Source: Enterobacter phage E-2
Reading direction: 5' to 3' (one strand)
Sequence record: KP791805.1
Length of the DNA stretch: 36,051 nt
In this document: positions 12,664 to 28,100 of the stretch, piece by piece
Layout: each line of letters begins with the position of its first letter
Numbering within the stretch: the stretch's first letter is position 1
Position numbers and translations under genes: made by a program
Notes under the pieces: model-generated
What the model was told of the DNA's origin: nothing
Seen by the model: only the letters and a program-made list of their open reading frames with translations
Databases searched by the model: none

Positions 12664-12797
12664 TTATTGGCCTCCTTAAAGCGCCGCTCCCACAGCGCAT
12701 ACAGTTGTTGGTAGGCGTTGGCTGCGGCCTCGTCACCAGCCTCAATAGCTTGGTTCCACTTAGCGGCACACCAATCGCAACATTCACGAAGCGTCAT
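12660..12797 (-). CDS. gp1.8: gp1.8-position small protein (45 aa, CCDWC motif)
   Basis: Internal ATG 12795-12797 is preceded by AAGGGG, giving [45 protein letters not shown]. The longer track ORF (to 12893) would overlap gene 1.7 by 110 nt. Confidence 0.5.
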
Positions 12798-13263
12798 AGC
12801 ACAGCCCCTTATGTTTGTCAAACAGTTCCTGATAGAAAGCCGCTTTCTTAAGGTCTTTCTCCATTGTTGCCAGTTCGGATTTCTTACCAGCACGCAGACG
12901 GTATTTCAGGATGTTCCCTAAGCAGTACCCACGGAACGCCTCGACGGTCATTGACCGGGCGATAACCTCAATGGCTTCCACATTGTCGAACAGCATGTAG
13001 TGGTTCGGATGGGTCACGTCAGACTTGACTGCTGATTTCGGTGCTTCCACGTTCGGGCCTATTTTAGGTAGCGGGATTAGTACGGATGGATGCACCTCAG
13101 TCTCACGAATACCAAACTGAACCTTCACTCGACCAGTGTGAGAGTAGCCCTGCACTGTTCCGGTCAGACCCTTGAGAACTGGGTTATCGCCCGAATAACG
13201 AACAGCAGAGTTAACCGGGAAGCGAGCCTCTAAGTCTGGTTTGTTCCAATGATGTTGTAGCAT
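12784..13263 (-). CDS. gp1.7: gp1.7 homolog (nucleotide kinase in T7), with a divergent/shorter N-terminal half
   Basis: 159 aa. The C-terminal ...HPNHYMLFDNVEAIEVIARSMTVEAFRGYCLGNILKYRLRAGKKSELATMEKDLKKAAFYQELFDKHK matches the T7 gp1.7 C-terminus. Confidence 0.8.
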   Translation of the reverse strand: MLQHHWNKPDLEARFPVNSAVRYSGDNPVLKGLTGTVQGYSHTGRVKVQFGIRETEVHPSVLIPLPKIGPNVEAPKSAVKSDVTHPNHYMLFDNVEAIEVIARSMTVEAFRGYCLGNILKYRLRAGKKSELATMEKDLKKAAFYQELFDKHKGLCYDAS

Positions 13264-13520
13264 TACAGCACCTCCTTAATCCACTTAACGAACAGACGGA
13301 TGCGAGGCCAGTAAGTGACCACGGCTTCCAGATGTGGGCGCTCTTTGTTCATCGCCTTAATGAACTCTCCACGAGTGATCAGTAGGTGAACACGCGGCGA
13401 CAATGGGACGACCGAGCCAATCAGCGGCAGCTTAGCGTTGCGCTCAGAGGCCACTGCTGTAGAGCGGTCTTCACGGCGAACCGAAAAGATACCATTTGAT
13501 GTGTTGAAGTGTAAACGCAT
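13263..13520 (-). CDS. gp1.6: gp1.6
   Basis: 85-aa ORF in the gene 1.6 slot, of the same size as T7 gp1.6 (88 aa). Confidence 0.75.
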   Translation of the reverse strand: MRLHFNTSNGIFSVRREDRSTAVASERNAKLPLIGSVVPLSPRVHLLITRGEFIKAMNKERPHLEAVVTYWPRIRLFVKWIKEVL

Positions 13521-13532
13521 GATGTTGTCTCC

Positions 13533-13610
13533 TTAACAATCAGGCCAAATGTTGTCGTCGGCAACCATTAATCCCAGCGTTGCGACGATAGCGAATAGGA
13601 TAAGCCACAT
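13533..13610 (-). CDS. Possible gp1.5-like micro-ORF (25 aa, hydrophobic)
   Basis: ATG 13608-13610 is preceded by CAGGAGA. The translation is MWLILFAIVATLGLMVADDNIWPDC. It lies directly downstream of a phage promoter. Speculative. Confidence 0.3.
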   Translation of the reverse strand: MWLILFAIVATLGLMVADDNIWPDC

Positions 13611-13618
13611 GGTGTGTG

Positions 13619-13641
13619 TCTCCTGTTAGTGAGGGTTAATA
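13619..13641 (-). promoter_or_regulatory. T3-type phage promoter (phi1.5/1.6 position), class II variant
   Basis: tctcctgttagtgagggttaata. Confidence 0.7.
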
Positions 13642-13650
13642 CCGCTGAAC

Positions 13651-13679
13651 GAAGAAAGGCCCACCCGTGAAGGTGAGCC
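13651..13679 (-). terminator. Early terminator TE for host RNAP (rho-independent), downstream of the ligase gene
   Basis: On the coding strand: GGCTCACCTTCACGGGTGGGCC followed by TTTCTTCG. This is the GC hairpin plus T-tract that I recall as the T7 TE sequence. Confidence 0.7.
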
Positions 13680-13689
13680 ATTGAGTTGG

Positions 13690-14706
13690 TTACATTTTCT
13701 CTTGAGGGTTGTCCTCAGTGCCTCGGAACTTCTCGAAGCTAGGGTGACGCAGGGAGCCGTCCGGGGTCTCTTCCATATAGTTGACCTGACAGGCCCACCC
13801 GTTGTAGAAGTCTTCACCGTGGGCTTTAACGTTGGCTGTGAACTCGTCCATCAGTGCGCGAGAGATGTTGTTGGCGTCTACTAAACGACCAGTCTCAAGA
13901 AGCACACTAAAGCCTATCACTTTACCCTCGTTGGCTAACCCTTTGGTTCCCCAATTGACACCCTGAATGATACCATCAGCTTCACACTCAGGCTTTAGCT
14001 TCCACCAGCCAGACTTCTTGCCTCGCTTGTAGATGCCTTGCGGGTCTTTCACAATGAGACCCTCGTGACCTTCGGCACGCTTCTCTTCGTACAGTTCAGT
14101 CAGTGAATCCATATCGTAGACCTCGTAGGTCTCAGCGATAAGCCACTCGATTTCCGGGAAGTATTCAACCAGAAGGGAGCGCATGGCTTCCACATGATAT
14201 GGCATCAGGAGGTTCTGCACATCATAGTCCTCGCCAGACTCAGCAATGTGAATCGGCATGACCGCATACAGGCGCACACTCAGGCGCTTAGGGTCTAACT
14301 CAAAGGCTACTTTGGAACCTTTCAGCGGCTCAACACCACCACGGTCAAACATGAAGTTGTTCTTCTTGAGCCACTTGGTACGCAGCAGGCCAGACCCCGT
14401 GTTGAAGTCTACGCCTTTGACCATCAGTTCACCATCCAGCATGAAGCCATCAGGGAAAATGCAGCGGTCATCATTCATCAGTTGTTGCCAGCGCTTATCG
14501 AAACCGTTCAGATGTTCCAGCGCCGGGATGAACTTGGAGACGCGAGACAACCATGCGGCCTCAGCCACGTTGTCAACCACAATGTTTCCACGAACACCGT
14601 CATATTTACAATCCGCTATCAGGTAGCCGGAAGTCTCCAGCGCTTTACGCACGGCAGACTCAACAAAGGATACAGCTTTATATGGCGCGGTCTTGAAAAT
14701 GTTCAT
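13690..14706 (-). CDS. gp1.3: ATP-dependent DNA ligase gp1.3
   Basis: 338 aa. MNIFKTAPYKAVSFVESAVRKALETSGYLIADCKYDGVRGNIVVDN contains the ligase KxDG adenylation motif (CKYDG). Confidence 0.97.
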   Translation of the reverse strand: MNIFKTAPYKAVSFVESAVRKALETSGYLIADCKYDGVRGNIVVDNVAEAAWLSRVSKFIPALEHLNGFDKRWQQLMNDDRCIFPDGFMLDGELMVKGVDFNTGSGLLRTKWLKKNNFMFDRGGVEPLKGSKVAFELDPKRLSVRLYAVMPIHIAESGEDYDVQNLLMPYHVEAMRSLLVEYFPEIEWLIAETYEVYDMDSLTELYEEKRAEGHEGLIVKDPQGIYKRGKKSGWWKLKPECEADGIIQGVNWGTKGLANEGKVIGFSVLLETGRLVDANNISRALMDEFTANVKAHGEDFYNGWACQVNYMEETPDGSLRHPSFEKFRGTEDNPQEKM

Positions 14707-15119
14707 ACGAATCTCCTGTTAATATTTCGCTTAATCTTATGGATGGTTGTTGGGTGGACGCCCCACTCAGCCGCTATCACAGTGGAAGAGCGAGGGTCTT
14801 TGCGGATGCCCTCAATGGCATCGTTCGGAATCTTAATGGCGTGGTGTCTACCCTTTATCGCCATGTCTTTCAGGTTATCGGCCTGCGTTCCCTTGGTCAA
14901 ATGCTCAGGGTTCACACACCACCTGTTGTCGCACGAGTGAAGGACTGTATCTTTATTGTCCAGTTCACCGATAAACAGCTTGTAAGCTGCTCGATGTGCG
15001 TATTGTGTTTTACCTTCGAGGCGAAACTGTCCGTAACCGTTAGGCTGGATTCGACCAGTCCAACGTAGACAGTCACCGCAAGGTTCAGTCTTTGCGTTGA
15101 ACCGTTCGATGTTTCTCAT
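14703..15119 (-). CDS. Free-standing HNH endonuclease (homing-endonuclease-like; HNH_3-type motif plus a C-terminal DNA-binding tail)
   Basis: 138 aa with ...YAHRAAYKLFIGELDNKDTVLHSCDNRWCVNPEHLTKGTQADNL.... The spacing is His-Asn-His-like. There is an ATGA overlap with the ligase start. It has no place in the canonical T7 gene 1.2-1.3 interval. Confidence 0.8.
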   Translation of the reverse strand: MRNIERFNAKTEPCGDCLRWTGRIQPNGYGQFRLEGKTQYAHRAAYKLFIGELDNKDTVLHSCDNRWCVNPEHLTKGTQADNLKDMAIKGRHHAIKIPNDAIEGIRKDPRSSTVIAAEWGVHPTTIHKIKRNINRRFV

Positions 15120-15125
15120 TTCGTT

Positions 15126-15148
15126 TCTCCTGTTAGTGAGGGTTATTA
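15126..15148 (-). promoter_or_regulatory. T3-type phage promoter (phi1.3 position), class II variant
   Basis: tctcctgttagtgagggttatta. Confidence 0.7.
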
Positions 15149-15421
15149 CTTCCAGTGTTTCAAATCGCTGTGAACCTTACGGAGCCATGCAGTCTGCGCG
15201 TTGATTTGCACATCGCTGTCGCTGTGCTCGAAGGTTCTGGATGCAACCAAATGCCCTGAGCGTGTGAACACACGTAGAGCCTCACCGGATGACCTGCACA
15301 TCTTCGCTGGGTTTTCATAGCTGAATGACTCCACCTTCACGGTCACGTCATGGTCTTCCTGTAGACGCGCTACCGCATCTTTGTAATCGTGCAGGTTGCC
15401 GCTATAGATACGTCCCATCAT
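15146..15421 (-). CDS. gp1.2: gp1.2 (dGTPase inhibitor homolog)
   Basis: ...MGRIYSGNLHDY...HSDLKHWK versus T7 gp1.2 MGRLYSGNL...DQLKDWK. Start chosen at ATG 15419-15421, which overlaps the gene 1.1 stop (TAATG). The track ORF starts at an upstream GTG. Confidence 0.8.
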   Translation of the reverse strand: MMGRIYSGNLHDYKDAVARLQEDHDVTVKVESFSYENPAKMCRSSGEALRVFTRSGHLVASRTFEHSDSDVQINAQTAWLRKVHSDLKHWK

Positions 15422-15561
15422 TAGTTCCACTCCCGTTTCTGTGAGTTACCGCGCTGTTGCTTGTGGCGTTTCTTCATGCGGTCACGGCGCTCTTGCCACT
15501 GTTCGCCATGCTCGTTGACCACTGAATCGCGCTTGGTAAATTTCTCAAAGTTGGTACGCAT
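15421..15561 (-). CDS. gp1.1: gp1.1 (46 aa, basic)
   Basis: ATG 15559-15561 is preceded by GAGGT. MRTNFEKFTKRDSVVNEHGEQWQERRDRMKKRHKQQRGNSQKREWN resembles T7 gp1.1. Shorter than 60 aa, so not in the track. Confidence 0.65.
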   Translation of the reverse strand: MRTNFEKFTKRDSVVNEHGEQWQERRDRMKKRHKQQRGNSQKREWN

Positions 15562-15584
15562 AGTATCTTACCTCATGTTGATGT

Positions 15585-15636
15585 GTATTGAAAGTTAATC
15601 ACAAAGGCCACCGTTGTTGATGACCTTAAGTTTAAC
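15585..15636 (-). promoter_or_regulatory. R1.1-like RNase III site (conserved bipartite element)
   Basis: taatcacaaaggccaccg ... gaccttaagtttaactc. Confidence 0.45.
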
Positions 15637-15659
15637 TCTCCCGTTAGTGAGGGTTAACT
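15637..15659 (-). promoter_or_regulatory. T3-type phage promoter, phi1.1 position (class II variant)
   Basis: tctcccgttagtgagggttaact. It overlaps the gene 1.05 stop. Confidence 0.7.
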
Positions 15660-15926
15660 GTATGTCCGTTCGATACGACCACACGTTGAACCTTTAGGGT
15701 AGTAGAAGGATTTCGTTTCGTTGTCCTCAGTGGTCTGGAAGATGACCATCCCGGAGGACGTTGAGTAACATTCCAACTTCGTGACCACCTTGCCGCACGG
15801 CCCTAAGCCTAACTTAAATTCAGTCTTGCGGAGGTCATCACTACCGGGCATCCAAGCGTAGAACTTAACGGAAGTCAAGCGGTTTAACTTAAAGATGTTC
15901 TTAAGGAAAGTCTTAATGTTAATCAT
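15654..15926 (-). CDS. gp1.05: gp1.05-position protein (gene present in T3-like but not in T7)
   Basis: 90-aa ORF between gene 1 and gene 1.1, preceded by its own phage promoter. Called by position only. Confidence 0.6.
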   Translation of the reverse strand: MINIKTFLKNIFKLNRLTSVKFYAWMPGSDDLRKTEFKLGLGPCGKVVTKLECYSTSSGMVIFQTTEDNETKSFYYPKGSTCGRIERTYS

Positions 15927-15978
15927 AAATTTAATCTCTTAGTACCTAAAGTGTCTTAAAGTGGGAGACCTTAAGTAG

Positions 15979-16001
15979 TCTCCCGTTAGTGAGGGTTAAT
16001 G
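15979..16001 (-). promoter_or_regulatory. T3-type phage promoter, phi1.05 position, preceded by a GC hairpin
   Basis: tctcccgttagtgagggttaatg. The hairpin gggagaccttaagtagtctccc lies at 15963-15984. Confidence 0.7.
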
Positions 16002-16012
16002 CTAAGTGCTTG

Positions 16013-18667
16013 TTATGCAAAGGCAAAGTCAGACTTGAGAATGTCTTGCAGGTTCAGGTTCCCTTTCTTCGGAAGCGGAGGCATCTTGTCCAGTTGGGTC
16101 TCGTGCAATTGGTCTGCAAACTGGTCATAGAAGTCTGCCAGCACATCGTTGTTCTCGTAGGTGAGAACCATCGTTTCACGCACAGCCTTAAAGAGCTTAC
16201 CAGCGTCTGCCGGAATAGTCCCAAAGCTGTCATGGATGAGCGCAAAGGACTCAATGCCATACTTCTCGTGAGCATAAACTACTGTCATGCGGAGGTGGCT
16301 ACCGTCCTGTGAGTGGACAAAGTTAGGAGCGATGCCAGACTCCTGCTTGTGTGCGTCAATGCCTGAATCCTTGAGGGTATTAATCGTCGGTTGCAGACGG
16401 AATTGCCCTAAGAAAATCATATCGAGACGCTTCTGGAGTGGCTTGCGGTATTCCTGCCAGACCGGGAAGCCGTCCGGCGTAGTCCAGTGAACCGCGCAAC
16501 GGTGGCGCAGAATCTCCTTGGTCTTCTTGTCCTTGACCTCAGCAGCCAGCAGCTTAGCGGCAGACTTGAGCCAGTTCATCGCCTCAACCGCTGCGACTAC
16601 GGTCACACTCACCGCGTCCCAAATCAGCTTAGCCATATAGCCAGCCGCTTGGTTAGGTTGGGTGAACATCAAGCCCTTACCGCTGTCAATCGCAGGCTGA
16701 ATGGTGTCATCCAGTACCTGTTGACGAAAGCCAAACTCCTTAGAACCGTAAGCCAGCGTCATGACCGAACGTTTAGTTACGCTACGGGTTACACCATATG
16801 CCAGCCACTGTTGCGCCAGCGTTGAGGTTCCCAGCTTGAGCTTCTCTGAGATTTCCCCTGTGTCCTTGTCGGTCACGGTAATCATCTCGTTAGGTGTGCC
16901 GTTGATTGCATCCTGTTTGAGAATCTCGTTTACTTTCTGTGCAACGATGCCGTAAATGTCCTGCACGGTTTCGCTTGGCAGAAGGTTAACCGCACGACCG
17001 CCTACCTCATCGCGTAGCATCGCGGAGAAGTGCTGGATACCAGAGCAAGACCCATCGAACGCCAGCGGCAGAGAGCAATTGTAGCTCAGACCGTGGTGCG
17101 CAACTCCTGCATACTCGAAGCAGAACGCGAGGAAACAGAAAGGTGAATCCTGCTCGGCCCACCAAGTGTTATTGATTGGGTCTTTAGCGCAAGCCAGAAT
17201 GTCGTCTACGTGCTTCTCAATGAACGCGATGCGCTCAGGGAAAGGAACCTTATCGACACCCGCACAGTTCGCACCGTGGATTTTCAGCCAGTAGAACCCT
17301 TCCTCACCGATTGGCTTGCCTTTAGCGAGGGTTAGGAGACCCTTGGTCATGTCGTTGCCTTGCGGGTTGAACATCGGCACAGCGTACACACGACCGCGCC
17401 AGTCCATGTTGTAAGGGAACCAGATTGCTTTCTTGTTTGCGAACTTGTTGGCCTGCTCCAGCATGAACTCTAAGCTGATACGGCGAGACACTCGTGCCTT
17501 GTCCAAGCGGTAGATACCAGCGGCGGCTTTCTTCCACTCCTTGAGTGCTGCCTCGTTGGTGTCAATGTCGTCCGGCTTAGGCGGTAACTCTTGGCGCTCC
17601 AGAGATGGAATGTCTGCGACCGGGCAATTCTTCCAGTTCACAATCTCATTGACAACCGCAAGAACTTTCTTGTTGATTTTCCATGCGGTGTTCTGTGCGA
17701 TGTTGACCGCCTTGTAAACTTCTGGCATGTAAACATCCTCATAGCGCATCAGTCCCTTCTTAGAGTGAGTGCGAACGAGTGCCAAAGGTCTGCGACCGTT
17801 AGCCCAATAGCCGCCACCTGTGATTGATACCCAAGGTTTCGGCGGTACGACACACGGTTGGAACATCGGAGAGATGCCAGCCAGTGCTCCCGCACGCTTC
17901 GCTAACACATCGACGTACTCTTGGGCCAGTTGCAGTGCCTCATGGTCAGAGCCTGCGTTACCTGCGTTGTGGCGCTGTAATTCCACCAGACCCGTGGATT
18001 CAATCAGCATTTCAATCAGGCGAATCCCTACGTGCATCGTGGTTTCCTTGTCCCAGCTAGACCACGCCTCACCTCCCAGCAGCCCGCGACCAATCATGTC
18101 TGCCTCAACCACCTGCATAAAGGCTTTCTTGTAGACTTGCCCGTGGCGCTTGTTGAGTTGTTCCTCAACGTGCTTCTTGAAGTGCTTCGCTTCGAGGTCA
18201 CGGATACGCCCGAAACGTGCCTCATCCTCAATGGCCTTCCCCAGCATACCAGCAGCGGCCTGAATGGTTGTCATGTTCGTGCTGGTCAGTGATGCAAGGA
18301 TAACTTTCAGGGTGATAAACGCGGAGGCCTCCGGCTTGAGTAACTGGAGCGGTGCGTATGCGCTAGGCTTGCGGCCTTTCTTCGATGCGTACTCTTCGAG
18401 CCACTCAACGATGCGTGCGGTTAACTTAGGGAGAAGCGTAGCGAGTAATGGCTTAGCGGCTGCGTTGTCTGCAATCTCACCAGCTTTCGCTTGACGCTCA
18501 AGCATCTTGAGGAAGCGGCGCTCACCTAGCTCATAGGACTCATGCTCTAAGGCCAGTTGTTCACGGGCCAGTGCGCTACCGTAGTGGTCTGCCAGCGTGT
18601 TGAACGGGATAGCAGCCAGTTCGATTTCGGAGAAGTCATTCTTTTCGATGTTTTCGATGATGTTCAT
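16013..18667 (-). CDS. gp1: DNA-directed RNA polymerase gp1 (single-subunit, T3 specificity)
   Basis: 884 aa from ATG 18665-18667 (GAGG SD), giving MNIIENIEKNDFSEIELAAIPFNTLADHYG.... As far as I can recall it is essentially T3 RNAP. The track ORF starts 9 codons upstream, inside the 15-bp repeat, and is not preferred. Confidence 0.97.
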   Translation of the reverse strand: MNIIENIEKNDFSEIELAAIPFNTLADHYGSALAREQLALEHESYELGERRFLKMLERQAKAGEIADNAAAKPLLATLLPKLTARIVEWLEEYASKKGRKPSAYAPLQLLKPEASAFITLKVILASLTSTNMTTIQAAAGMLGKAIEDEARFGRIRDLEAKHFKKHVEEQLNKRHGQVYKKAFMQVVEADMIGRGLLGGEAWSSWDKETTMHVGIRLIEMLIESTGLVELQRHNAGNAGSDHEALQLAQEYVDVLAKRAGALAGISPMFQPCVVPPKPWVSITGGGYWANGRRPLALVRTHSKKGLMRYEDVYMPEVYKAVNIAQNTAWKINKKVLAVVNEIVNWKNCPVADIPSLERQELPPKPDDIDTNEAALKEWKKAAAGIYRLDKARVSRRISLEFMLEQANKFANKKAIWFPYNMDWRGRVYAVPMFNPQGNDMTKGLLTLAKGKPIGEEGFYWLKIHGANCAGVDKVPFPERIAFIEKHVDDILACAKDPINNTWWAEQDSPFCFLAFCFEYAGVAHHGLSYNCSLPLAFDGSCSGIQHFSAMLRDEVGGRAVNLLPSETVQDIYGIVAQKVNEILKQDAINGTPNEMITVTDKDTGEISEKLKLGTSTLAQQWLAYGVTRSVTKRSVMTLAYGSKEFGFRQQVLDDTIQPAIDSGKGLMFTQPNQAAGYMAKLIWDAVSVTVVAAVEAMNWLKSAAKLLAAEVKDKKTKEILRHRCAVHWTTPDGFPVWQEYRKPLQKRLDMIFLGQFRLQPTINTLKDSGIDAHKQESGIAPNFVHSQDGSHLRMTVVYAHEKYGIESFALIHDSFGTIPADAGKLFKAVRETMVLTYENNDVLADFYDQFADQLHETQLDKMPPLPKKGNLNLQDILKSDFAFA

Positions 18668-18673
18668 TGTTTG

Positions 18674-18703
18674 CCTCATTGTGTGTAGCCTCATTGTGTG
18701 TAG
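18674..18703. repeat. Perfect 2x15-bp tandem direct repeat (cctcattgtgtgtag) immediately upstream of and overlapping the gene 1 ribosome-binding site
   Basis: Positions 18674-18688 are identical to 18689-18703. Confidence 0.9.
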
Positions 18704-18800
18704 TGTTAGTGGATATCATAAAGGGCACCTTGCGATACCCTTGAGTTATCCGCTATTCGTGCACTCAAGAGCTATTATCCAGATTGTTAAAGAACTTTAG
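18700..18800 (-). promoter_or_regulatory. R0.3-like RNase III site (the stem-loop that precedes gene 0.3 in T7), here directly upstream of gene 1
   Basis: The coding strand reads CTTTAACAATCTGGATAATAGCTCTTGAGTGCACGAATAGCGGATAACTCAAGGGTATCGCAAGGTGCCCTTTATGATATCCACTAAC. This is almost identical to the T7 R0.3 region as I recall it. Confidence 0.55.
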
Positions 18801-18951
18801 GCTACAGTTTCGTCGAGCCGAGGCTATTTCAGTGTTAGCCGTCACTTGCGTTATAAGTGCGACAAGCTCTTTATTATCGTGGTCGCTTGTGCTTTCGCCA
18901 TCTATCCACTATGTCGCGTTTTTACACCTACGACACTCGGTGTCTTTCATG

Positions 18952-18987
18952 TGGTACATCGTACCGTGCTTACTTCATGTTGTCAAC
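18952..18987 (-). promoter_or_regulatory. E. coli sigma70 early promoter A3
   Basis: On the coding strand: TTGACA, 17 bp (ACATGAAGTAAGCACGG), then TACGAT. Confidence 0.6.
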
Positions 18988-19061
18988 CATTTTGTTTCGC
19001 TTTATGTGCCGTGGTGCGCTTAAGTCACCTAGAAGACACCGAAGCGGTGGTTAACGTTATG

Positions 19062-19097
19062 TTGTGCATCTTACTGCGTTTACTTCATGTTGTCAAT
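19062..19097 (-). promoter_or_regulatory. E. coli sigma70 early promoter A2
   Basis: On the coding strand: TTGACA, 17 bp (ACATGAAGTAAACGCAG), then TAAGAT. Confidence 0.6.
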
Positions 19098-19189
19098 GCC
19101 TGTTTTTCGTATGACTTATCAGGCTGTCTACTTATCCGGTTGACTCCGGTATCTCAGGGAGTGGCTTTAAGGCCGTTGTCCCGTTGACG

Positions 19190-19226
19190 AGATGAATAAT
19201 AGCCTTAAGGGTTACTTAAAGTCAAC
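19190..19226 (-). promoter_or_regulatory. E. coli sigma70 early promoter A1
   Basis: On the coding strand: TTGACT, 17-18 bp, then (C)TATTAT. The flanking sequence GGATAAGTAGACAGCCTGATAAGTC is shared with T7 A1. Confidence 0.6.
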
Positions 19227-19278
19227 CATTAATTTAAATCTTTTATTAAATCCCTTATTCCCTCTTTAAGTATCCCTT

Positions 19279-19301
19279 ATTCCCTTTAGTGAGGGTGATT
19301 G
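19279..19301 (-). promoter_or_regulatory. T3-type phage promoter, phiOL position (replication/packaging-associated; variant downstream half)
   Basis: attccctttagtgagggtgattg. Confidence 0.65.
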
Positions 19302-19359
19302 AATTGACTACAGATAACTACAAGGCACCGCTACAGGTTAACAATGGGTCTTATCGGTC

Positions 19360-19860
19360 TGGTTGTCTTTAAGATAGCGGCACTCTTTAGGTGATGGCTT
19401 TAGGTGATGGCTTTAGGTCTGGTCTTTAGGGTTTACTTTATGAGGCTAACAGATAGGGACACATAGAGATGTACTATCGAACTGGTACACTAGGACACTC
19501 TTTAAGTCTCCAATAGTCACCCATCACTTTAGGTATTGACTTTAGGCAACACTTTAGGCTATCCTATAGGCCACTTGAGGAAATACCCAAGGTTAACCGA
19601 AGGTTAAACCAGAGGGGTAGGGCTGGCTTTAGGTGGCTTTAGGAGGGCTATGGGGGGTACTTTGGGTTCTTGAACTGTGAGATACCCATTCAGATTTTTG
19701 TGGTAAATTCTTAAAGGGTCTCTTTAGGCAACCACTTTAGGTAGGGCCACACCATAGGTGAGACCATAGGCGCATCCCGAAGGGATAGCTAGGAGACACT
19801 TAAAGACCCTGTAAGACCATTACGAACTACAGGGCATCTTTAGGTATAACCTTTAGGGTT
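19360..19860. repeat. Array of at least 14 dispersed CCTAAAG / CCTTAAAG heptamers (ctttagg / ctttaag on the + strand), including four 12-bp tandem units (ctttaggtgatgg x2, then ctttaggtctgg, tctttagggttt). This is the concatemer-junction/packaging region.
   Basis: ctttagg occurs at about 19387, 19399, 19411, 19423, 19527, 19540, 19552, 19636, 19645, 19719, 19731, 19836 and 19848. This is the same heptamer that decorates both genome ends of T7. Confidence 0.7.
19452..19682 (-). repeat. Predicted direct terminal repeat (a single collapsed copy in this circular assembly). The genome left end is predicted at 19682 (5'-TCTCACAGTTCAAGAACC...).
   Basis: The coding strand from 19682 reads TCTCACAGTTCAAGAACCCAAAGTACCCCCCATAGCCC..., which parallels the T7 left end TCTCACAGTGTACGGACCTAAAGTTCCCCCATAGGGGG. 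The span to ...TCTATGTGTCCCT (19455) is 228 bp, versus about 231 bp for the T3 terminal repeat. Boundaries are by analogy only. Confidence 0.45.
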
Positions 19861-19939
19861 GACTCTACAGGGATGAGTTGGTGTAGTGAAACTATACCTA
19901 CGAATCCCTCAGAGCCGCTTGTCGGTCATCAACAATAAT

Positions 19940-20089
19940 TTAATCCCCACAAGAGAGTATAGAGCAAAAGGCCACTTCCAGTTGACCGAGGTGGTCAGTA
20001 AGACCTGCGTACCCAAGGGTAGCAGTAAGTACCAGAAGAAATCGCCAAGTGACTCTATGACGCAGCAGGGCAATCAGCAAGTGTAACAT
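19940..20089 (-). CDS. gp19.5: gp19.5 (49 aa)
   Basis: ATG 20087-20089 is preceded by GAAAGGAGGTGG. MLHLLIALLRHRVTWRFLLVLTATLGYAGLTDHLGQLEVAFCSILSCGD versus T7 gp19.5 MFRLLLNLLRHRVTYRFLVVLCAALGYASLTGDL... Confidence 0.85.
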   Translation of the reverse strand: MLHLLIALLRHRVTWRFLLVLTATLGYAGLTDHLGQLEVAFCSILSCGD

Positions 20090-20230
20090 TGAGCCACCTC
20101 CTTTCAGTTGCTCTAAGGTAGGTGATTATACAATGATAATTATCACCAATCACAGAGGTAGACTTAAAGTGCATAAAGGGTCATTGCATAACCTGAATGA
20201 CTAACCTATATAGTAGCTTTAAGTCCCCTC

Positions 20231-20253
20231 TCTCCCTTTAGTGAGGGTTAATT
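20231..20253 (-). promoter_or_regulatory. T3-type phage promoter, phiOR position (consensus)
   Basis: tctccctttagtgagggttaatt lies between gene 19 and gene 19.5. Confidence 0.8.
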
Positions 20254-20333
20254 CAAACTCATTGATTCTTAAGGAATTTCTTAAAGTGACCATCCGTGGT
20301 CTAATTGAATCCTTATGCGCTCAACATGCATAA

Positions 20334-22097
20334 CTACCAGTCAATGAACCTGTTGCTATTCACATCGTCATCCTCCCAATAGAGTTCCATACCGTCAACC
20401 ATAGAGGTAACTACATGACCAGCCGAATGGATTGGGTGCTCCATGTGTTCCTCTAAGAACGCCTCAAGCACCTCAGCCTCCACCTTCACGGCGTCCAGTT
20501 CCATCGTAGAGCGTAAAAACTCCACACCCAATGCTAACGCATCAAGTCGGTCGTCATGTGCCACAGCGCCCTTCTCACGGGCCATGCGGGTCAACTGGTA
20601 GAACAGTGAATAGCGAACATCATGCTTGCCATCAGCGTCACGGGCAGTCTGGTAGTCCTCACGAATCACCTCGTCACGAATCACAAGGCGGTGCGTAGAG
20701 AGTACAGGCTCCAGCGTATCACAAATGCGTAGTTCCTTCATACCGCGAGCACGAATCTCTTCAAGTTGCGCTGCATGGTGTTTCAGGAGCACAGGGCTGA
20801 ATACCTTACCAAACATACCATCCCCGAAGTTACTCTCGAAGACCACTGTCTGAACCTTCCACTGCTTCGCTTTCTTAGCGAGGGACTCAAGGGTCTTATC
20901 GGAATAACCATCGCGGAACCCGCCAGCTTCCATCAGATAGATGTAGCCATTCAGGGTGAACAACACTGCATAACCTGTCTCATCCTTACCGCGACCACTT
21001 GGGTCAATCACGAGGATGCGTTGTTGGTACTGTCCAGTGTTCTGGCTGCACGAATGATAGCTATGAATATCATCACCCTTAAGGCCCACGTTAGGAAGCT
21101 CTTCATTGCGATTCTGACGGTTCGGAAGCCACTGGTAATGCATTGGGGCTTTCTCGAAGTCCAGACCGCACACGATAGCGTCACGGAGGCGTAAGGGGTA
21201 CTTCTCGGCATCACTCAGGTTCGGGTTGAGCATGAACTGCAAAGTGAAGCCAGCCTTACCGTATTCCAACTCACGCTCACGCAGGTCTTCCATATCGAAG
21301 CGAACGGGGTCAGTCGGTTGACCTTGGAGCATCTCGAACCCATCGTTGAACTCTTCGCGGAGCATCGGGGCCAGACGGTCGCCATAGTACAAGTCTTCCT
21401 CACGGCTACGCGGATAGAGCGCAGGCCAGATGATTGTGGTGTACCCACGGTTATCTTCGAGTTCCTTGTACAAGGTCATTTCGGTTTGAGGCGTACCAAG
21501 GTAGATAACGCGAGAAGTCGGCAGCGGTTTCAGAAGCGCAGCAAATTCCTGCACCAGAGTCCACAGCTTCTCACGGGCACCTTGAGTTGCGGAGTTAGAC
21601 GGAATCTCAACGTCATCCGCTATGATGATATCAGCACGGCTACCAGTCAACTGACCAGTGATACCCACCGACTTCACAGACGGAGAGTGGTCAGGCTTGG
21701 CAGGGCCAACATCGAAACTAATCACAGAGTCACGCTGACCGGGGCGAGGCTTTAGCTCAGCCAAGAATGGTAGCAGGTCAATGATGTTCTTGATGAAGAT
21801 GGAGTTAGCGTCCGCACGTTCTTTGGATGCAGAGACAATCAGTATCTTCAACTGAGGGTCACGCCATAACGTCCACACAACGAACGCACAGGTGATGAAG
21901 GACTTACCGATACCACGGAAAGCCTGTAGGATAAACTTCTTGTTGTCTCCGTTAGCTAGACACCGGGCCATATCAATCTGACACTTAGTCGGTGGCGGGA
22001 GAGCCAAAGCCTTCCACAATACGAACAGGAAGGCCACGAAGTCACCCTTAAGTTGCGCGATGATTAGCGCATTACGGTTTGCTTGGGTGTCGCTCAT
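20334..22097 (-). CDS. gp19: Terminase large subunit (DNA maturase B) gp19
   Basis: 587 aa, collinear with T7 gp19 (586 aa). ATPase Walker A and a nuclease C-terminal domain are present. Confidence 0.97.
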
Positions 22098-22524
22098 TCT
22101 GCATCTCCTTAATAGTACGCTGGAGCGCCCTTACGTGAGCATCAGCAGCTTGGGTTATTCCGATAATACGCTTAGCATCTGACTCGTGTAGTTCGGCTCG
22201 ACCATTAAACTCGCATCTACCGTTATCTTCTGGTAGTCCTGTAAGGGTTTTGATGCGGACTGACAGCCGCTTATTATTACTACGCAGGTCATTAAGCATC
22301 CTATCAGTGCTGCCTTCAATGGCTGCAATCTCTTCTTGGTACTCACGGGATACCCGACTGACCTCTGCCTGAGTTGCTGCGGTTGCTTTTGTTTTCGCAA
22401 TGTATTCATTTTGGATTACCTCCTTCCAGTTTGCTCTCTCATGGGTTGACCCTAAGTGCCAGCCACCCATAAAGAGTGTCCCGGCGAGTACCCAAGGGAG
22501 TGCGCTGCGTAAAAGTTTTAGCAT
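22072..22524 (-). CDS. gp18.5: i-spanin (Rz-like) gp18.5
   Basis: [26 protein letters not shown]... versus T7 gp18.5 MLEFLRKLIPWVLAGMLFGLGWHLGS.... N-terminal TM segment present. Start taken at ATG 22522-22524; the track starts at an upstream TTG. Confidence 0.85.
22155..22409 (-). CDS. gp18.7: o-spanin (Rz1-like lipoprotein) gp18.7, fully embedded in the +1 frame of gp18.5
   Basis: 84 aa with lipobox ...VIISGCQS.... It ends ...[18 protein letters not shown] versus T7 gp18.7 ...SSLMVEPNLTTEMLNVFSQ. Confidence 0.85.
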   Translation of the reverse strand: MNTLRKQKQPQQLRQRSVGYPVSTKKRLQPLKAALIGCLMTCVVIISGCQSASKPLQDYQKITVDASLMVEPNYTSQMLSVLSE

Positions 22525-22544
22525 AACACCTCCCATCAATTTTC

Positions 22545-22613
22545 AGATTTCACGTAGATGCACCAAATAACATCCATAAAGGCTCTCCGAGTGGAGAACC
22601 TTGAGTATGTCAC
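22545..22613 (-). promoter_or_regulatory. R18.5-like RNase III site (conserved bipartite element)
   Basis: catccataaaggctctcc ... ccttgagtatgtcac. Confidence 0.45.
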
Positions 22614-22880
22614 TTACTGTAGCGTGATAGTTTCATCGTCAGTCAGACCATTAGGGCCGACCACTTTGTTGTAGTCTTCCAGACCAGCCGCGAGACCTCC
22701 AAGGATATTCTCGTCCGGTGTCAGCTTACTGATTTGGAACTTATGGCGGTCTAACAGTTTGCCGATTGCGTTGTAAAGCTGCGGCGTTCGGCGTTCCTCG
22801 CTCTGGAGGTCAGCAAGCATACGCTGTGCCATCTCAGTGTCTAGCATCTCCAGCAGCTTGATTAAAGTCTTGTCGCTCAT
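22614..22880 (-). CDS. gp18: Terminase small subunit (DNA maturase A) gp18
   Basis: 88 aa. MSDKTLIKLLEMLDTEMAQRMLADLQ... matches T7 gp18. Confidence 0.9.
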   Translation of the reverse strand: MSDKTLIKLLEMLDTEMAQRMLADLQSEERRTPQLYNAIGKLLDRHKFQISKLTPDENILGGLAAGLEDYNKVVGPNGLTDDETITLQ

Positions 22881-22883
22881 AGG

Positions 22884-23087
22884 TTACTCCTTATTTGCAC
22901 GTTTCCAGTCAATCATCTTATCGACTACCTTGGCACCAATCTGAACCACTGTGTAGGCGATAGCTGCAACGTAGAACCATTCGTTTAACGATAGTCCCCA
23001 AAAGAGTCGGGCCGCCCCATCAGCGACCCCTGTGCCAACAATAGGCGCAGCCTTAACGACCTCATTGTTGAAGTCGAAGGATAACAT
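22884..23087 (-). CDS. gp17.5: Class II holin gp17.5
   Basis: 67 aa, the same length as T7 gp17.5, with a single TM segment and MLSFDFNNEVVKAAPIVGTG.... Confidence 0.9.
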   Translation of the reverse strand: MLSFDFNNEVVKAAPIVGTGVADGAARLFWGLSLNEWFYVAAIAYTVVQIGAKVVDKMIDWKRANKE

Positions 23088-23098
23088 TTAACACCTCC

Positions 23099-25042
23099 TT
23101 AGTCTGTCATAAGTTTAGATTCAAGCTCCTGAACGCGAGCGTCTAGGTTCTTAACAAGTAACATCAGTCCACCAATAATCTGGTTCGGGTCAGGGGACTG
23201 AATTCCATCTGACATTACGTCCACAGCCTCTGGCCACAAGCGTATTAAATCCTGTGTAATGAAGCCAGCCCGTGAACGCTTACCTTCAATGGTGTTTGTC
23301 CTACCCCTGTTATCTGTATAGGATGCGTCCTTATATTTGTAGGACACAGGGATGTACGACCGAATGATGTTCAACATGTCGTCAGCAGAGCGAACAACCT
23401 TAATGTCTTCTTTCAGCCTTCTGTCCGACTTGAACCAGCGGAACCCAACGGCTGTACCATCAACCCTACCTTCAAGATAATCCCCGCCCCTTGCGGTGAA
23501 TAACTGAACACCTCCGGGTGGCTTGGCGAACAATGAGTTGTTATTTAGTCCGCTCCATAAGTTACCCCACTGCGCCCAGATGCCACCAGTTAGATTACCG
23601 TTACCTTCAAACATCGTACTTCCCATTCCTGCGTAGAGGTTCTGACCAACGATATTGTTGTTCTCCTCAATTCGGGCACCTGAACGAACCTGTAGGTGGC
23701 TTGCGTAGATAACACCGCCTCCGGTAATATCAACTCTACCAGTCTCTACTGAGTTCTCAGCATTGACTGTGCGGAACACGAATCCGCCCGAACCAGCACC
23801 ACGGTTGGTGATAAAGTTTGACTCACCGCTACCACCCTCGTTCCATCCAATATGTAGACCCTGCCGTTGTCCCACATGTTGTGGATTGGTGTCAATGTGG
23901 AGTCGGGACAGCTTATTATAAACGTTGGGTGATAGTGTTTGATTAATGCCTCCATGAGCATATGTGACGCCAGCTACGGCGATGTTTCGCTGAGAGTACA
24001 TATCCCGCTTTGCGGTAATATCCCTTTCAACAATCAAGTCCTCTCCAACAAGCGCACCTTTCTGGATACTCGCCGCACCTGTGGAGACTAAACCACCGCC
24101 TGTGATATTGCCGGGACTATTAATGTTTCCATTCATGGTTACATGGATGCCATCAACACTATCAATCGCAGCCGCGAAGTCGTTCATATTGCCCAACTTA
24201 CTTGCTTCCTCAATGGCTCGTTCCTCAGAAGCCTTGGCTTTGGCCTCAGAGGACTTAGCGTTGGCCTCAGAGTTCTTCGCGTTACTTTCGGAATCCTTCG
24301 CATTGGCCTCAGAAGTTTTTGCCCTGTCGGCCGCATCTTTAGCCTCATTCCGGTATGACATGGAGTGAAGCGCGTAGGTTCGTGATGATTCTAGATTTGG
24401 CTCCACAGCGGTTTCCTTAACGGCCCACTGTTTTGATAATTCGGCGGAGCCAGCAGAAGAGCTTGCAGAGCTTGCAGATGCGTTCGCAGAGTTGTTCGCA
24501 TCGTTTGCACGAGCGGTCGCACGGTCAGCTTCCTGTTTCGCTCGATTCGCAGAGTTCAACGCAGAGTCGTTCCACCGTTGGATTTGACCTAGATTGATTG
24601 CGTCACCTACATCTTGTGCATCCGCAACGTTCACAATACGACGACCACGAGCATCCAAGTTCCCATCATTGTTAACGCCAATTGTATCAGCGGTAAGGTC
24701 ACGGGCTTCCTCAGCAACGTGAAGTGTCTGAACCTGAGATATGTTCAAATCATATGCCCGCAGGATTGAGCCGTCGGTAAAGTCAACCAGACGATCTGTA
24801 GCGGAGGTGAATCGACGGATTTCAATCAAAGTATAACCGTCCGCTGGCCCCAATGCTCTCGTTGTGGAGATTGTGGTCTTAGTCGCAAAACGATAGTCTT
24901 GATTCAAGATGAGTTCCTTTCGGTCAACACCGATAAGGGTCACTCTGACGAACTTACGCGCCAGATACTCGAACGGAATATTAAAGTCCGTAGTGGAGCC
25001 ATCCAGCGGGTAAGTCATCACGGTCTTAATATTTGTAGCCAT
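23099..25042 (-). CDS. gp17: Tail fiber gp17 (647 aa). It has a T7-like N-terminal tail-attachment domain, a heptad-repeat stalk, a divergent distal region, and a C-terminal S74-type intramolecular chaperone (auto-cleaving) domain.
   Basis: Start is ATG 25040-25042 with AAGGAGGT 7 nt upstream (MATNIKTVMTYPLDGSTTDFNIPFEYLARKF..., like T7 MANVIKTV...). The track ORF starts 8 codons upstream without an SD. The C-terminal ...FRWFKS|DRRLKEDIKVV...QIIGGLMLLVKNLDARVQELESKLMTD carries the S-D-x-R-L-K-x-x-I signature. Confidence 0.9.
   Translation of the reverse strand: MATNIKTVMTYPLDGSTTDFNIPFEYLARKFVRVTLIGVDRKELILNQDYRFATKTTISTTRALGPADGYTLIEIRRFTSATDRLVDFTDGSILRAYDLNISQVQTLHVAEEARDLTADTIGVNNDGNLDARGRRIVNVADAQDVGDAINLGQIQRWNDSALNSANRAKQEADRATARANDANNSANASASSASSSAGSAELSKQWAVKETAVEPNLESSRTYALHSMSYRNEAKDAADRAKTSEANAKDSESNAKNSEANAKSSEAKAKASEERAIEEASKLGNMNDFAAAIDSVDGIHVTMNGNINSPGNITGGGLVSTGAASIQKGALVGEDLIVERDITAKRDMYSQRNIAVAGVTYAHGGINQTLSPNVYNKLSRLHIDTNPQHVGQRQGLHIGWNEGGSGESNFITNRGAGSGGFVFRTVNAENSVETGRVDITGGGVIYASHLQVRSGARIEENNNIVGQNLYAGMGSTMFEGNGNLTGGIWAQWGNLWSGLNNNSLFAKPPGGVQLFTARGGDYLEGRVDGTAVGFRWFKSDRRLKEDIKVVRSADDMLNIIRSYIPVSYKYKDASYTDNRGRTNTIEGKRSRAGFITQDLIRLWPEAVDVMSDGIQSPDPNQIIGGLMLLVKNLDARVQELESKLMTD
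24222..24326. repeat. About five tandem 21-bp repeats inside gene 17, encoding the heptad repeats SEANAKD/SESNAKN/SEANAKS/SEAKAKA
   Basis: gcctcagaagccttggctttg / gcctcagaggacttagcgttg / gcctcagagttcttcgcgtta / ctttcggaatccttcgcattg / gcctcagaagtttttgccctg. Confidence 0.75.
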
Positions 25043-25093
25043 GTGACCTCCTTTGTAAATTAGCATTAAGAGAAGAGGCCAGAATGTGACCTC

Positions 25094-25116
25094 TCTCCCT
25101 TTAGTGAGGGTTTATT
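25094..25116 (-). promoter_or_regulatory. T3-type phage promoter, phi17 position
   Basis: tctccctttagtgagggtttatt overlaps the gene 16 stop. Confidence 0.8.
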
Positions 25117-28100
25117 GTTTCTTCGGCGTCTCCTTTATACGGATACCGTTGGCCTCGTAGATTTTCATAATGAGTTGCTGCGATAGCGGGTCATTAGGAA
25201 TCAACTCACGAGAGGTGTTGAAGAGTCCTGTACGGAACTCCAGAGCGGTAGCCTTGTTTGGAGAAGACAGCAGGGAAGCGGCGTTAATAGCTGTTGCACC
25301 CACAGAACCCACAAAACCTAAACCCGGAACCTGCTCACCAACCGCACCTGCGATAGATGAAGCCACCTGTCTACCTGTCAGTGCCTTGTTAGGGTCTCGC
25401 TTCTCGGACTCTTTAGGGAGTACCGTAGAGCGGGTGTACTTATAGGTATCGCTACCAACCATCCCAGCGAACATATCGTAGATACTCAATGGTGAGCCTA
25501 AGTGTGAACTACGAGAGATTGACGCATGAGCAATCATCTTAGGGTCAAGGGCGTTCTTAAGGTACTCCTTACGTTTGTGCTCCTGTAGGCTTGCGGCCTT
25601 AAGGTGCGCCTGCGCAACGTAGTAACCACCAGCTAGACCCAAAGAGATGATATGAGTCAACGCTTGGTCTAACGCACGGTTGTTCTTCGTTGCCTCGTAG
25701 AAGCTACGGACGAACCGGGAGTTAAGGGACTTGATGACGAAGTTCTTAAACTGCATCACCATCTTCACCCCTGCACCGAACGCTTTGGAGTCCTGTGAGG
25801 AAACCTTGTGAGGGCGCAGTATAGTCTCATCCGCCACCTTGTCGGCCAGTCTCCACAAGTCCATTGAACGTGGGTCGTTAGCGAAAGCCTGTTTGTCACG
25901 AATGGTGAACTTACCGTCTTCTCCACGAGTCGCATAGTCTCTGAACAACTGCTTGATTCCATTCCACTGCTCAGGGCTGATAGAGGCAGACTTAAGGTAG
26001 TTTGCCTTACCGAACTTAGAGGCTTTCCCAGCAAGGGCCGCTCCAGCCACATCCCCAAGCACACCCTGACGGGCAGCATCAAGAATGTAGTTTGATGTTC
26101 CGTTTAGGAGCATTGTCCAAGGAGAGCGTGCAGCCAACTCTTGAGTACCGAAACGAATCGTACCGACCACATTGGCAACCGCAGCGCTGGTGTCCGTAGA
26201 CTCCCTAAGTCGGCGCACGTGGTCTTCACGTCCCGGACGGATTAGTTGGTCTAGTTCCTTACCGAACACCATCCCGTGTATCTCCTTAATCTCAGAGGCA
26301 CGAAGCGGTTTACCACGGTTGACCCAATCGTTAATCATAGGGATGCCATGAGTTATCGCAGAGACGTTACCTTTCGCCAGCATACCAGCGATTTCAGTAA
26401 CGTTCTGTGCGCCCATATAGGCGTTCTTAGCAAAGAACGTGAGGTCATTGACGGAGCGCAGGGCTGTACCCCAAGCGCCTTCCGGGTTCCTACGAGCACG
26501 ACCAGTTAGAATCTTCACGGTGTCCTTGAGGGCTTCCACTTCACCTTTCAATGTGCCGTTGCCCTCTGACTGCTTATCCAGCGCCATGATTTCATCTTTC
26601 AGGTCTTTGGTAGTCTTACCGGAACCACCCATGATTGCAACATCACCATCTACTCGTCGGTCGTATGCAGGCAGAATTTCAGCCATGTCATAGGTACGCA
26701 GGTCATTCACAGAGAACGTGTTACCATCAGGGAGAGTCACCGCCATGTCACTGTCGAACATGTTACGGGCTTCCAAGAAGTTGTTGTTCTCGATACCCAC
26801 CAGACCCTCAATGTTATCCTCAATGACAGAGGAGGCAGAGAACTGGTCGGTGTGTGAAATACCATACGCCTTATCCATCGCGTGCTTCTGCACCATCTCA
26901 GGCGTAACTTCCTGCACGGATTTGAGACCGTTAAGTTCCATCAGGTACTCATCGACCCTCGCCTTGACTTCTGGACGAGCACGATAAGACGTCAACCATG
27001 ACTCCGCGATTGCTCGCTGCAAGCCATCATTACCGTAACGTTTAACCATCTCAATCTTGATAGCGCGGTCGTACACGTTTGGCACGTAGGTTCCCTTGTG
27101 GCGTGAGCCGGGGAAGATACTGACCGCCTTGGTGTTGCCGAAGATTGACGGGTTCTCCATGATTTCACGTTTGAGGTCAAAGTGCTGCTTGAGGATGTTC
27201 ATCACGTTCCGCTCACCCTTTGTCAGGTTTGCTTGAAGCTCAGGTCGCTCAATCGCCAAGGCTGCACGCTTGTAGATTTCCTGTCGGATTTCCTTACGGC
27301 TCATTGTGGCCCCACCTGTGGAGAACTCAGGGTCTTTCATTGCAGTACGCACAGCATCATAAAGCTGATTGTAGGTGCGCTGATTGTTCGCGTGGAGCCG
27401 CTCCTTAATGTCAGAAGCAGTCGCACCGAACTTACCATTAGAGCCTGATTCCATCCCTGTTGGAGAACGCACAAGGTCACTCGCAATGGAGCGAACAGTC
27501 GGGTTCTCAGAGCGGAGAGTCTTCAAGCCAATCTCAGTGAAACCACCCAAAGAGATACCACGCGCGGCACGCTCAGGGTTGACCGCCTCGAACTCGCTAA
27601 GAGTCTGAGGGTTCAGTGGGTTGGTGTCGCTCAGGATTTGACCTTGAGGCAACACAACGGCACCCGGCTCGGTCTCTAGAGGTGAATACTCAACGCCAGC
27701 GTGCTCACGGTCGAACACACGGTTCTCGCTAGGCATACGGGTCAGGTCTTCGCCACCAGCGTTCAGAGCGGTCTCACGGGCTTCCAAGCGGTGTGCCATA
27801 GGAGCGAAGTCATTAACAACCTCAGTACCACGGGAACGGCGAATACCAGCGGCGATAGCGTCACTGATTGCACTCATCCCGGCACCGAACATCAGACCGC
27901 CTAAAGCAGCATCAGCGTAGTGTGCTTCACCACCAGCTATTGATGTACGGATACCCTCAGATGCAATCGCTAATCCAGCGCTTTGAGTACCAACGACGAA
28001 CGCCTTGTTAACCACCTTGAGACCCTTCCCGGCTACGCCCACTAGCGGAACGTAACTCAGCGGGTCTACACCAGCGCCGACGATACCAGCAGTAAGTTTG

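Follow-up and report, generated by a model that had tools for sequence, protein, structure and literature searches.

Genome layout and the leader of gene 1

In the T3-like genome of Enterobacter phage E-2 (KP791805.1), three host promoters, A1 to A3, and an R0.3-like RNase III hairpin lead straight into gene 1, and the block of genes 0.3 to 0.7 that separates them in relatives is gone, as alignment to T3, ECA2, and phiYe-F10 reveals. The window, by which we mean the whole 36,051-bp stretch of DNA that was analyzed, is a complete, mosaic genome of the genus Teetrevirus (T3-like Studiervirinae), circularly permuted and circularized, with its genes on the minus strand; every long open reading frame (ORF) lies on that strand. 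When re-linearized at window position 19682, which corresponds to T3 position 1 on the reverse complement, the 36,051 bp are collinear with Teetrevirus phages. Positions 1 to 18000 align with Escherichia phage ECA2 as one collinear piece at 97.8% identity, and positions 19700 to 36051 match Yersinia phage phiYe-F10 at 96.9% identity. Membership of Teetrevirus is indicated by genome-wide collinearity, high nucleotide identity, a T3-type RNA polymerase, and a T3-type phiOL promoter. Outside the early region, the genome is 94 to 98% identical to wild phages, apart from a divergent stretch of ~154 bp and a few short gaps. The tail-fiber module is phiYe-F10-like. A scan of the whole window against Rfam gave no family match.

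Position 19682, which aligns with T3 position 1, marks the physical left end of the genome, and a single copy of the terminal repeat occupies 19447 to 19682 on the minus strand. The same interval (19682 to 19447) also matches the right repeat of phiYe-F10 (38976 to 39210) at 98.3% identity. The repeat, ~236 bp long, has been collapsed to one copy, and the break point of the window falls within the capsid gene region. Because the repeat is counted once in the circularized assembly, virion DNA would be ~36.29 kb long.

All features of the leader are on the minus strand and are given here in the direction of transcription. A T3-type phage RNA polymerase promoter, phiOL, lies at approximately 19280 to 19302, a position corresponding to that of phiOL in the T3 annotation (366 to 388), and reads ...AATCACCCTCACTAAAGGGAAT on the reverse complement. 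Three host promoters follow: A1 at 19196 to 19225 (TTGACT, 18-nt spacer, TATTAT), A2 at 19068 to 19096 (TTGACA, 17-nt spacer, TAAGAT), and A3 at 18958 to 18986 (TTGACA, 17-nt spacer, TACGAT). Each matches 10 of the 12 consensus positions in a sigma-70-like promoter scan and coincides with the position of its T3 counterpart and, for A1, with that of phiYeO3-12 as well. Downstream lies the R0.3-like RNase III hairpin (~18707 to 18756; predicted fold, z = -2.66), which is homologous to T3 R0.3 (822 to 875) and identical in sequence to the leaders of relatives of the Ocr type. Promoters and hairpin are thus all present, as the initial annotation had stated.

From the hairpin to gene 1 the sequence runs CCACTAACA CTACACACAATGAGG CTACACACAATGAGG CAAACA ATGAAC. 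Gene 1, identified by ORF calling, encodes the single-subunit RNA polymerase (16013 to 18667; 884 amino acids from the native ATG), with its native start, ATGAACATCATCGAAAAC, at 18667 and its stop at 16013. The ORF is full length, and its DNA is 96.6 to 97.8% identical to Teetrevirus gene 1 sequences. An exact look-up of the polymerase, in versions of 884 and 893 amino acids, found no entry in an index of proteins and the contigs that encode them. The native ATG lies 37 nt after ...CCACTAAC, not 20 nt after the hairpin as first annotated.

The leader has little room for coding sequence. Its longest coding-strand ATG ORF has 27 codons; it begins within the hairpin, at 18719, and extends into gene 1 in a different frame. 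The remaining coding-strand ATG ORFs do not exceed 16 codons, the ceiling first claimed for the whole leader, and GTG or TTG ORFs of 20 to 30 codons are also present. A PHROGs scan of the small leader ORFs on both strands returned no family match. Between the terminal repeat and gene 1 there is consequently no ORF with a family match, and what remains is what T7-group deletion mutants keep as essential: host promoters, a ribosome-binding site, and an intact gene 1.

The missing early block and the lost anti-restriction gene

Both flanks are collinear with T3, ECA2, and phiYe-F10, and they are separated by one gap that comprises exactly genes 0.3 to 0.7 and the R1 site. This is the outcome that the initial annotation had said an alignment of both flanks to T3 and relatives would give if the class I genes upstream of gene 1 had been deleted and gene 1 joined to the A1-A3/R0.3 leader, as it proposed. 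The left flank (19682 onward) aligns through 18679 and the gene 1 flank from 18683 in comparisons with ECA2, phiYe-F10, and T3. The gap corresponds to T3 905 to 2959, ECA2 17482 to 19875, and phiYe-F10 993 to 4003, and it is the sole large block missing from the genome. In T3, the equivalent interval holds gene 0.3, R0.5, genes 0.6, 0.65, and 0.7, promoter C, and R1.

We measured the missing length between the two ATGAGG motifs of each relative. It is 2,078 bp in T3, which is of the SAM hydrolase type, and in relatives of the Ocr type it is 2,412 bp (ECA2), 2,706 bp (phiCFP-1), 2,799 bp (metagenome contig ERZ1023972 NODE-892), 3,029 bp (phiYe-F10), or 3,107 bp (phiKp_31); the ~1.9 kb first suggested is too low against all of them. 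The short length of the genome is almost wholly accounted for by the deletion, which would have made it ~7% shorter.

The block has not moved elsewhere. When all 17 of the 0.3 to 0.7 proteins of T3, ECA2, and phiYe-F10, together with T7 Ocr, were compared with the window by tblastn, no match was better than E = 0.08. This bears out the initial statement that the window carries no 0.3 or 0.7 homologue and that the kinase and an anti-restriction protein, Ocr or SAM hydrolase, are missing.

Which of the two anti-restriction genes was lost can be narrowed down from the leader. A SAM hydrolase gene stands behind a leader reading ...CACTTAAC(AC)GAACTAACATGAGGTAACACCAAATG in T3, phiYeO3-12, 1Sgal1PP, and ESh8, and an ocr-like gene (MAMSNMTY...) stands behind ...CCACTAACACTACACACAATGAGGTAACACAAATG in ECA2, phiYe-F10, phiKp_31, and phiCFP-1. 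The leader of the window is of the Ocr type, identical up to AATGAGG to those of the latter four phages. Because of this match, the lost gene was probably ocr rather than the one for SAM hydrolase, between which the initial annotation had not chosen.

Direct repeats and a tandem duplication at the junction

In relatives of the Ocr type, the 10-bp sequence CACAATGAGG occurs at the ribosome-binding regions of both gene 0.3 and gene 1. ECA2, phiYe-F10, and phiCFP-1 have ACTACACACAATGAGGTAACACAAATG as the 0.3 leader and TTATTCACAATGAGGTAAGCAATG as the gene 1 leader; phiKp_31 has the same two leaders as ECA2, its gene 1 leader being taken from separate comparisons. The repeat common to both sites extends to 13 bp, CACAATGAGGTAA, in ECA2, phiYe-F10, phiKp_31, and phiCFP-1, that is, CACAATGAGG(TAA). 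Each of the nine relatives examined has GATTTATTCACAATGAGGTAAGCAATGAAC ahead of gene 1, with the spacer TAAGCA. An arrangement contrary to a deletion between repeats would be CTACACACAATGAGGCAAACA standing natively before gene 1 with no repeat at 0.3.

The window carries a variant of this spacer, CAAACA (18668 to 18673, minus strand), between the second of its two Shine-Dalgarno sequences and the native ATG of gene 1. The variant removes the TAA stop that normally ends an ATG-AGG-TAA mini-ORF. Two metagenome contigs of Teetrevirus, ERZ1023972 NODE-892 and QZLN01000710.1, read ...TTATTCACAATGAGGCAAACAATGAAC downstream of an intact kinase gene and R1. We had considered CAAACA as part of a deletion scar or as an adaptation that followed the deletion; both are ruled out by these two contigs, which have CAAACA together with 0.7 and R1, and the spacer is a natural polymorphism. 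ERZ1023972 NODE-892 combines an Ocr-type leader, an ocr-like gene, the kinase gene, R1, and the CAAACA spacer, and it has the 10-bp CACAATGAGG at both sites, 2.8 kb apart. It can thus stand as a proxy for the parental arrangement. Short direct repeats are therefore found at both end points of the deletion in proxy parents (relatives 94 to 98% identical), from which we infer their presence in the parent itself.

The parent would have been a Teetrevirus with an Ocr-type gene 0.3, several small genes, the 0.7 protein kinase gene, the minor promoter C, and R1, and it would have carried CACAATGAGG at the ribosome-binding regions of both 0.3 and gene 1. Replication slippage or short-homology recombination between the two copies would have removed 2.4 to 3.1 kb and placed gene 1 directly behind A1-A3 and the R0.3 processing site. 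Such an event gives exactly the flanks of the window, and the crossover lies somewhere inside the CACAATGAGG repeat. We also weighed a different crossover, in which CACAAATG at the start codon of ocr would have recombined with CACAATG of the gene 1 leader, and set it aside; additional indels and substitutions would be required, which makes it a less parsimonious account than an exact duplication of 15 bp.

That duplication is the second peculiarity of the junction. Tandem Repeats Finder reports an exact 15-bp tandem repeat of 2.1 copies at 18673 to 18703, and the chance expectation of an exact 15-bp tandem copy in 36 kb is ~3e-5. Copy 1 of CTACACACAATGAGG (18689 to 18703, minus strand) is native 0.3-leader sequence and holds CACAATGAGG (18698 to 18689), a first Shine-Dalgarno sequence, GAGG (18692 to 18689), and an in-frame ATG at 18694. 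Copy 2 (18674 to 18688, minus strand) holds CACAATGAGG (18683 to 18674), an in-frame ATG at 18679, and a second GAGG (18677 to 18674). In relatives, the 15-bp unit is present as a single copy, and the duplication junction was absent from pattern scans of IMG/VR and GTDB genomes.

The initial annotation had recognized this exact repeat and taken it for the scar of illegitimate recombination, with one copy of AATGAGG from the 0.3 region and one from the gene 1 region. The repeat is real; its reading as a scar is not borne out, for the deletion is explained by the 10-bp CACAATGAGG. Nor can copy 2 be the retained ribosome-binding site of gene 1, since it opens with CTACA, which is 0.3-leader sequence, at the place where gene 1 leaders have TTATT. 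By the same five bases, copy 2 is identified as a true tandem duplication. A simple crossover between repeats predicts one CTACACACAATGAGG and the window has two, so a second step or a complex event is needed, and the duplication appears to be a separate change and not the scar of the deletion. The in-frame tandem copy of the 15-bp CTACACACAATGAGG would have arisen either together with the deletion, in one complex slippage event, or afterwards, and the two changes presumably followed one another in that order if they were not simultaneous.

As a result, two Shine-Dalgarno sequences now stand before gene 1, and three ATGs, the native one included, lie in its frame. The frame is ATG(18694) AGG CTA CAC ACA ATG(18679) AGG CAA ACA ATG(18667); it is open upstream of gene 1 because the CAA variant replaces the TAA stop and because 15 bp keeps the frame. 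Starts at 18679 and 18694 would add 4 and 9 amino acids, respectively, to the gene 1 product. The distance from GAGG to ATG is 9 nt for the ATG at 18679 and, with the second GAGG, 6 nt for the native ATG. In an RNA-fold test, the unpaired probabilities of the Shine-Dalgarno sequences and ATGs were essentially equal with one copy or two.

The duplication might alter the translation of gene 1 or extend its product by 4 residues. Retuning of gene 1 is conceivable because the gene now stands on the 0.3 leader without R1. It could be proposed that the duplication is compensatory, with dual starts (an MRQT form) that retune the dose or timing of gene 1, and that, in parallel, loss of ocr was selected by Ocr-sensing defenses of the PARIS type. 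We regard this combined proposal as unlikely, and the in-frame tandem copy of a ribosome-binding site before gene 1 is the sole detail of the locus left unexplained.

Origin of the deletion and its expected consequences

Deletions of the early region have been known in the T7 group since the 1970s. The T7 deletion mutants H1, D111, LG, and C74 of Studier, as well as evolved lines, likewise lose nonessential class I genes that lie downstream of the A promoters and ahead of gene 1. Their end points, as in the window, lie in short direct repeats: the H1 deletion, which arises spontaneously in rich medium, has 12-bp direct repeats at its ends (PMC7261183), and other T7 deletions occurred at homologies of 7 to 9 bp (PMC8923235). 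The initial annotation had likened the junction to this kind of mutant, and the presence of CACAATGAGG at both ribosome-binding sites of relatives agrees with that comparison. A proxy parent that has both copies of CACAATGAGG and the CAAACA spacer points to a short-direct-repeat event of the classical T7 type. We therefore consider it likely that the window is a T3-like phage derived from an Ocr-type parent by a short-direct-repeat loss of 2.4 to 3.1 kb, with a later or simultaneous 15-bp duplication.

Unlike the T7 mutants, the window has a T3-like mosaic backbone and an extra in-frame 15-bp duplication at the junction. It also differs from an evolved T7 line in which 0.3 and gene 1 were fused by a 2.1-kb deletion, a change said to be typical when T7 adapts (PMC6042481). 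In the window, 0.3 and R1 are wholly gone, and there is no fusion protein because the crossover falls in the two ribosome-binding sites.

The phage could instead represent an established natural lineage without class I genes, for example, one adapted to hosts that lack type I restriction-modification (R-M) and BREX or that have Ocr-triggered defenses. Wild phages with similar arrangements give this idea some substance. Pseudomonas putida phage gh-1, with a genome of 37.4 kb, likewise has no predicted genes between the left repeat and gene 1 (PMC3080317); it belongs to a distant genus, however, and for the window, descent of the gene-free state from an Ocr-bearing Teetrevirus leader can be demonstrated. 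The Yersinia pestis diagnostic phages phiA1122, R, and Y (Teseptimavirus) have genomes labeled as wild of 37.3 to 37.6 kb, with an early region shortened like that of the window. Phage R has an annotated 0.3-0.7 fusion, and so lacks 0.4 to 0.6 and an intact 0.7, with R1 and gene 1 directly behind the fusion; in Y and phiA1122, the spacing from 0.3 to gene 1 is just as compact. All three keep a functional Ocr moiety and R1, whereas the window has neither. Also in keeping with a lineage are the phiYe-F10-like tail-fiber module and earlier work on phiYeO3-12. In work of 2005, Kiljunen et al. reportedly found the early region of that phage dispensable, with 0.3-0.7 deletions plating normally on Yersinia enterocolitica O:3. 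Insertions in 0.3-0.7 are said to have delayed gene 1 expression in the same study, such that the distance from promoter to gene 1 affects timing. Like the window, phiYeO3-12 is T3-like and has a related tail-fiber module; its deletion and transposon mutants were reportedly made in the laboratory, from a parent with a SAM hydrolase-type 0.3.

Database searches and the sequence of the window itself argue against such a lineage. No INPHARED record covered at least 80% of a 251-nt junction query by megablast or blastn, no leader-to-gene 1 fusion turned up when IMG/VR, JGI metagenome contigs, and GTDB genomes were scanned with gapped degenerate patterns, and a pattern scan for the exact junction found none. 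In INPHARED and these scans, the arrangement is thus not common to independently sampled relatives, and the initial annotation's concern that a relative might carry it as its wild-type state finds no record to match in the collections searched. The flanks have diverged no more than other parts of the genome, and the full Ocr-type A1-A3/R0.3 leader is unchanged. Type I sites (4 for EcoKI, 5 for EcoBI, and 7 for EcoAI) are as frequent in the window as in Ocr-bearing relatives, and no compensatory depletion relative to them was seen. A long-standing lineage is therefore quite improbable. Uniqueness of the junction in the searches, the unchanged leader, and the undepleted type I sites together make a mutant of recent, derived origin more likely than an old and adapted lineage. 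The mutant may have arisen in nature or during propagation.

Deliberate construction, by recombineering, rebooted fragments, or CRISPR counterselection, would account for the removal of exactly the nonessential block with promoters, R0.3, ribosome-binding site, and an intact gene 1 kept; overlapping primers could yield an exact tandem copy of a ribosome-binding site as a by-product, and engineered T7 0.3 deletions exist (PMC7261183). However, a naturally occurring direct repeat of 10 bp holds both end points, as a spontaneous event would lead one to expect, and foreign sequence, restriction sites, and markers are absent from the junction. The remainder of the 36 kb, with its 94 to 98% identity to wild phages, has an otherwise undescribed mosaic backbone that is no laboratory workhorse. 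Engineering is, on these grounds, highly improbable, and a spontaneous event is more likely, given end points in a natural repeat and a junction free of foreign sequence or engineered sites.

An assembly artifact, with the 0.3-0.7 block collapsed or skipped or the duplication a consensus error, is scarcely credible: the circularized window, with its collapsed terminal repeat and its break inside the capsid gene region, is an assembler product, but a 10-bp repeat is far below assembler k-mers and cannot collapse 2.4 to 3 kb, the missing block is unique sequence that would give its own contig, the junction keeps the reading frame and the ribosome-binding site, and viable deletion mutants of the T7 group span a size range that includes this genome.

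Loss of the early block should have consequences for infection. Ocr protects against type I R-M and BREX, and the 0.7 kinase acts in host shutoff and antidefense. A phage without either should grow well on defense-poor hosts and suffer restriction on those with type I R-M or BREX. For comparison, T7 without 0.3 is restricted ~10^3-fold by EcoKI and is fully sensitive to BREX (PMC7261183), and a 2026 report presents the 0.7 kinase as a broad antidefense factor (PMC13645617). When this phage is used or classified, a narrow efficiency of plating is to be expected on type I restriction and BREX hosts, and the phage is predicted to be insensitive to Ocr-triggered defenses.

Expression of gene 1 should change as well. 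Genome entry in the T7 group is coupled to transcription from A1-A3, and because gene 1 is now nearer to these promoters, it would enter the cell and be expressed earlier. With R1 deleted, the R0.3-like hairpin is the sole remaining processing site upstream of gene 1, and cleavage there would define where gene 1 mRNA has its 5' end. As an event, the deletion is a further instance of a long-known T7-group mutation and opens no new question; it provides a clean, base-resolved example from the T3 group of a deletion between two ribosome-binding-site repeats.

Mosaic composition of the genome and its tail fiber

On nucleotide comparison, the genome is a mosaic of two differently related halves. 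The early and replication half, compared over window 1-18000, is nearest to Escherichia phage ECA2 (97.8%), and the structural half including the tail fiber, compared over window 19700-36051, is nearest to the Yersinia enterocolitica phages phiYe-F10, AP5, and phiYeO3-12 (95.6 to 96.9%). The tail fiber gene lies on the minus strand (window 23099-25066), and the ECA2 alignment is interrupted over the region that encodes its C terminus (window ∼24551-23088). The affinity of the tail fiber region to phiYe-F10, AP5, and phiYeO3-12 and the break in the ECA2 alignment suggest phiYeO3-12-like receptor specificity.

A segment of ∼415 bp on the minus strand (window 14709-15125), flanked by gene 1.2 and the ligase gene and overlapping an ORF of 138 amino acids (window 14703-15119, minus strand), is shared with ECA2, where its counterpart is a hypothetical protein at 23443-23859, and is missing from phiYe-F10. 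Downstream of the capsid gene region, ∼154 bp (window 35504-35657) gave no megablast alignment to ECA2 or phiYe-F10; this stretch probably represents divergent sequence separating genes 10 and 11.

Early region and leader of gene 1

A shortened early region is also found in a reference genome: in Yersinia phage R (JX000007.1), an annotated 0.3-0.7 fusion gene (532-1025) is followed directly by the RNase III site R1 and gene 1, the RNA polymerase gene. As deposited, this Yersinia pestis diagnostic phage has an H1-like deletion in its early region. Phages Y and phiA1122 have a 0.3-to-gene 1 spacing equal to that of phage R.

The spacer that separates the gene 1 ATG from the Shine-Dalgarno sequence reads CAAACA instead of TAAGCA in two metagenome contigs, ERZ1023972 NODE-892 (644-664) and QZLN01000710.1 (1301-1321), and this substitution is a natural polymorphism. 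The variant eliminates the TAA that usually ends an ATG-AGG-TAA mini-ORF, so that, in wild phages as well, an upstream ATG shares the reading frame of the RNA polymerase.

The plus strand contains ORFs of 65 to 113 codons with TTG or GTG starts (window 18784-19187) that lie antisense to the region of promoters A1-A3. Comparable ORFs in some relatives (e.g., ESh8) are called hypothetical proteins by automatic gene callers. Those in the window are probably spurious because none matched a PHROG family.

Genome ends and restriction sites

The window is a circularized whole-genome assembly in reverse orientation, and its break point (1-36051) falls within the capsid gene region. The direct terminal repeat of ∼236 bp (window 19447-19682) is present in a single copy. 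Short tandem repeat arrays in and adjoining it (window 19385-19430, 19585-19643, and 19234-19259), composed of CTTTAGGTGATGG repeated 3.5 times and of units of 10 to 12 bp, resemble repeat arrays known close to the ends of the T3 and T7 genomes.

The whole 36-kb window contains no PstI/YenI sites (CTGCAG), three GATC sites, and two CCWGG sites, and ECA2 and phiYe-F10 are likewise depleted in all three. Unlike these scarce motifs, GGTAAG, which we take to be the E. coli HS BREX site, occurs 44 times across the window.
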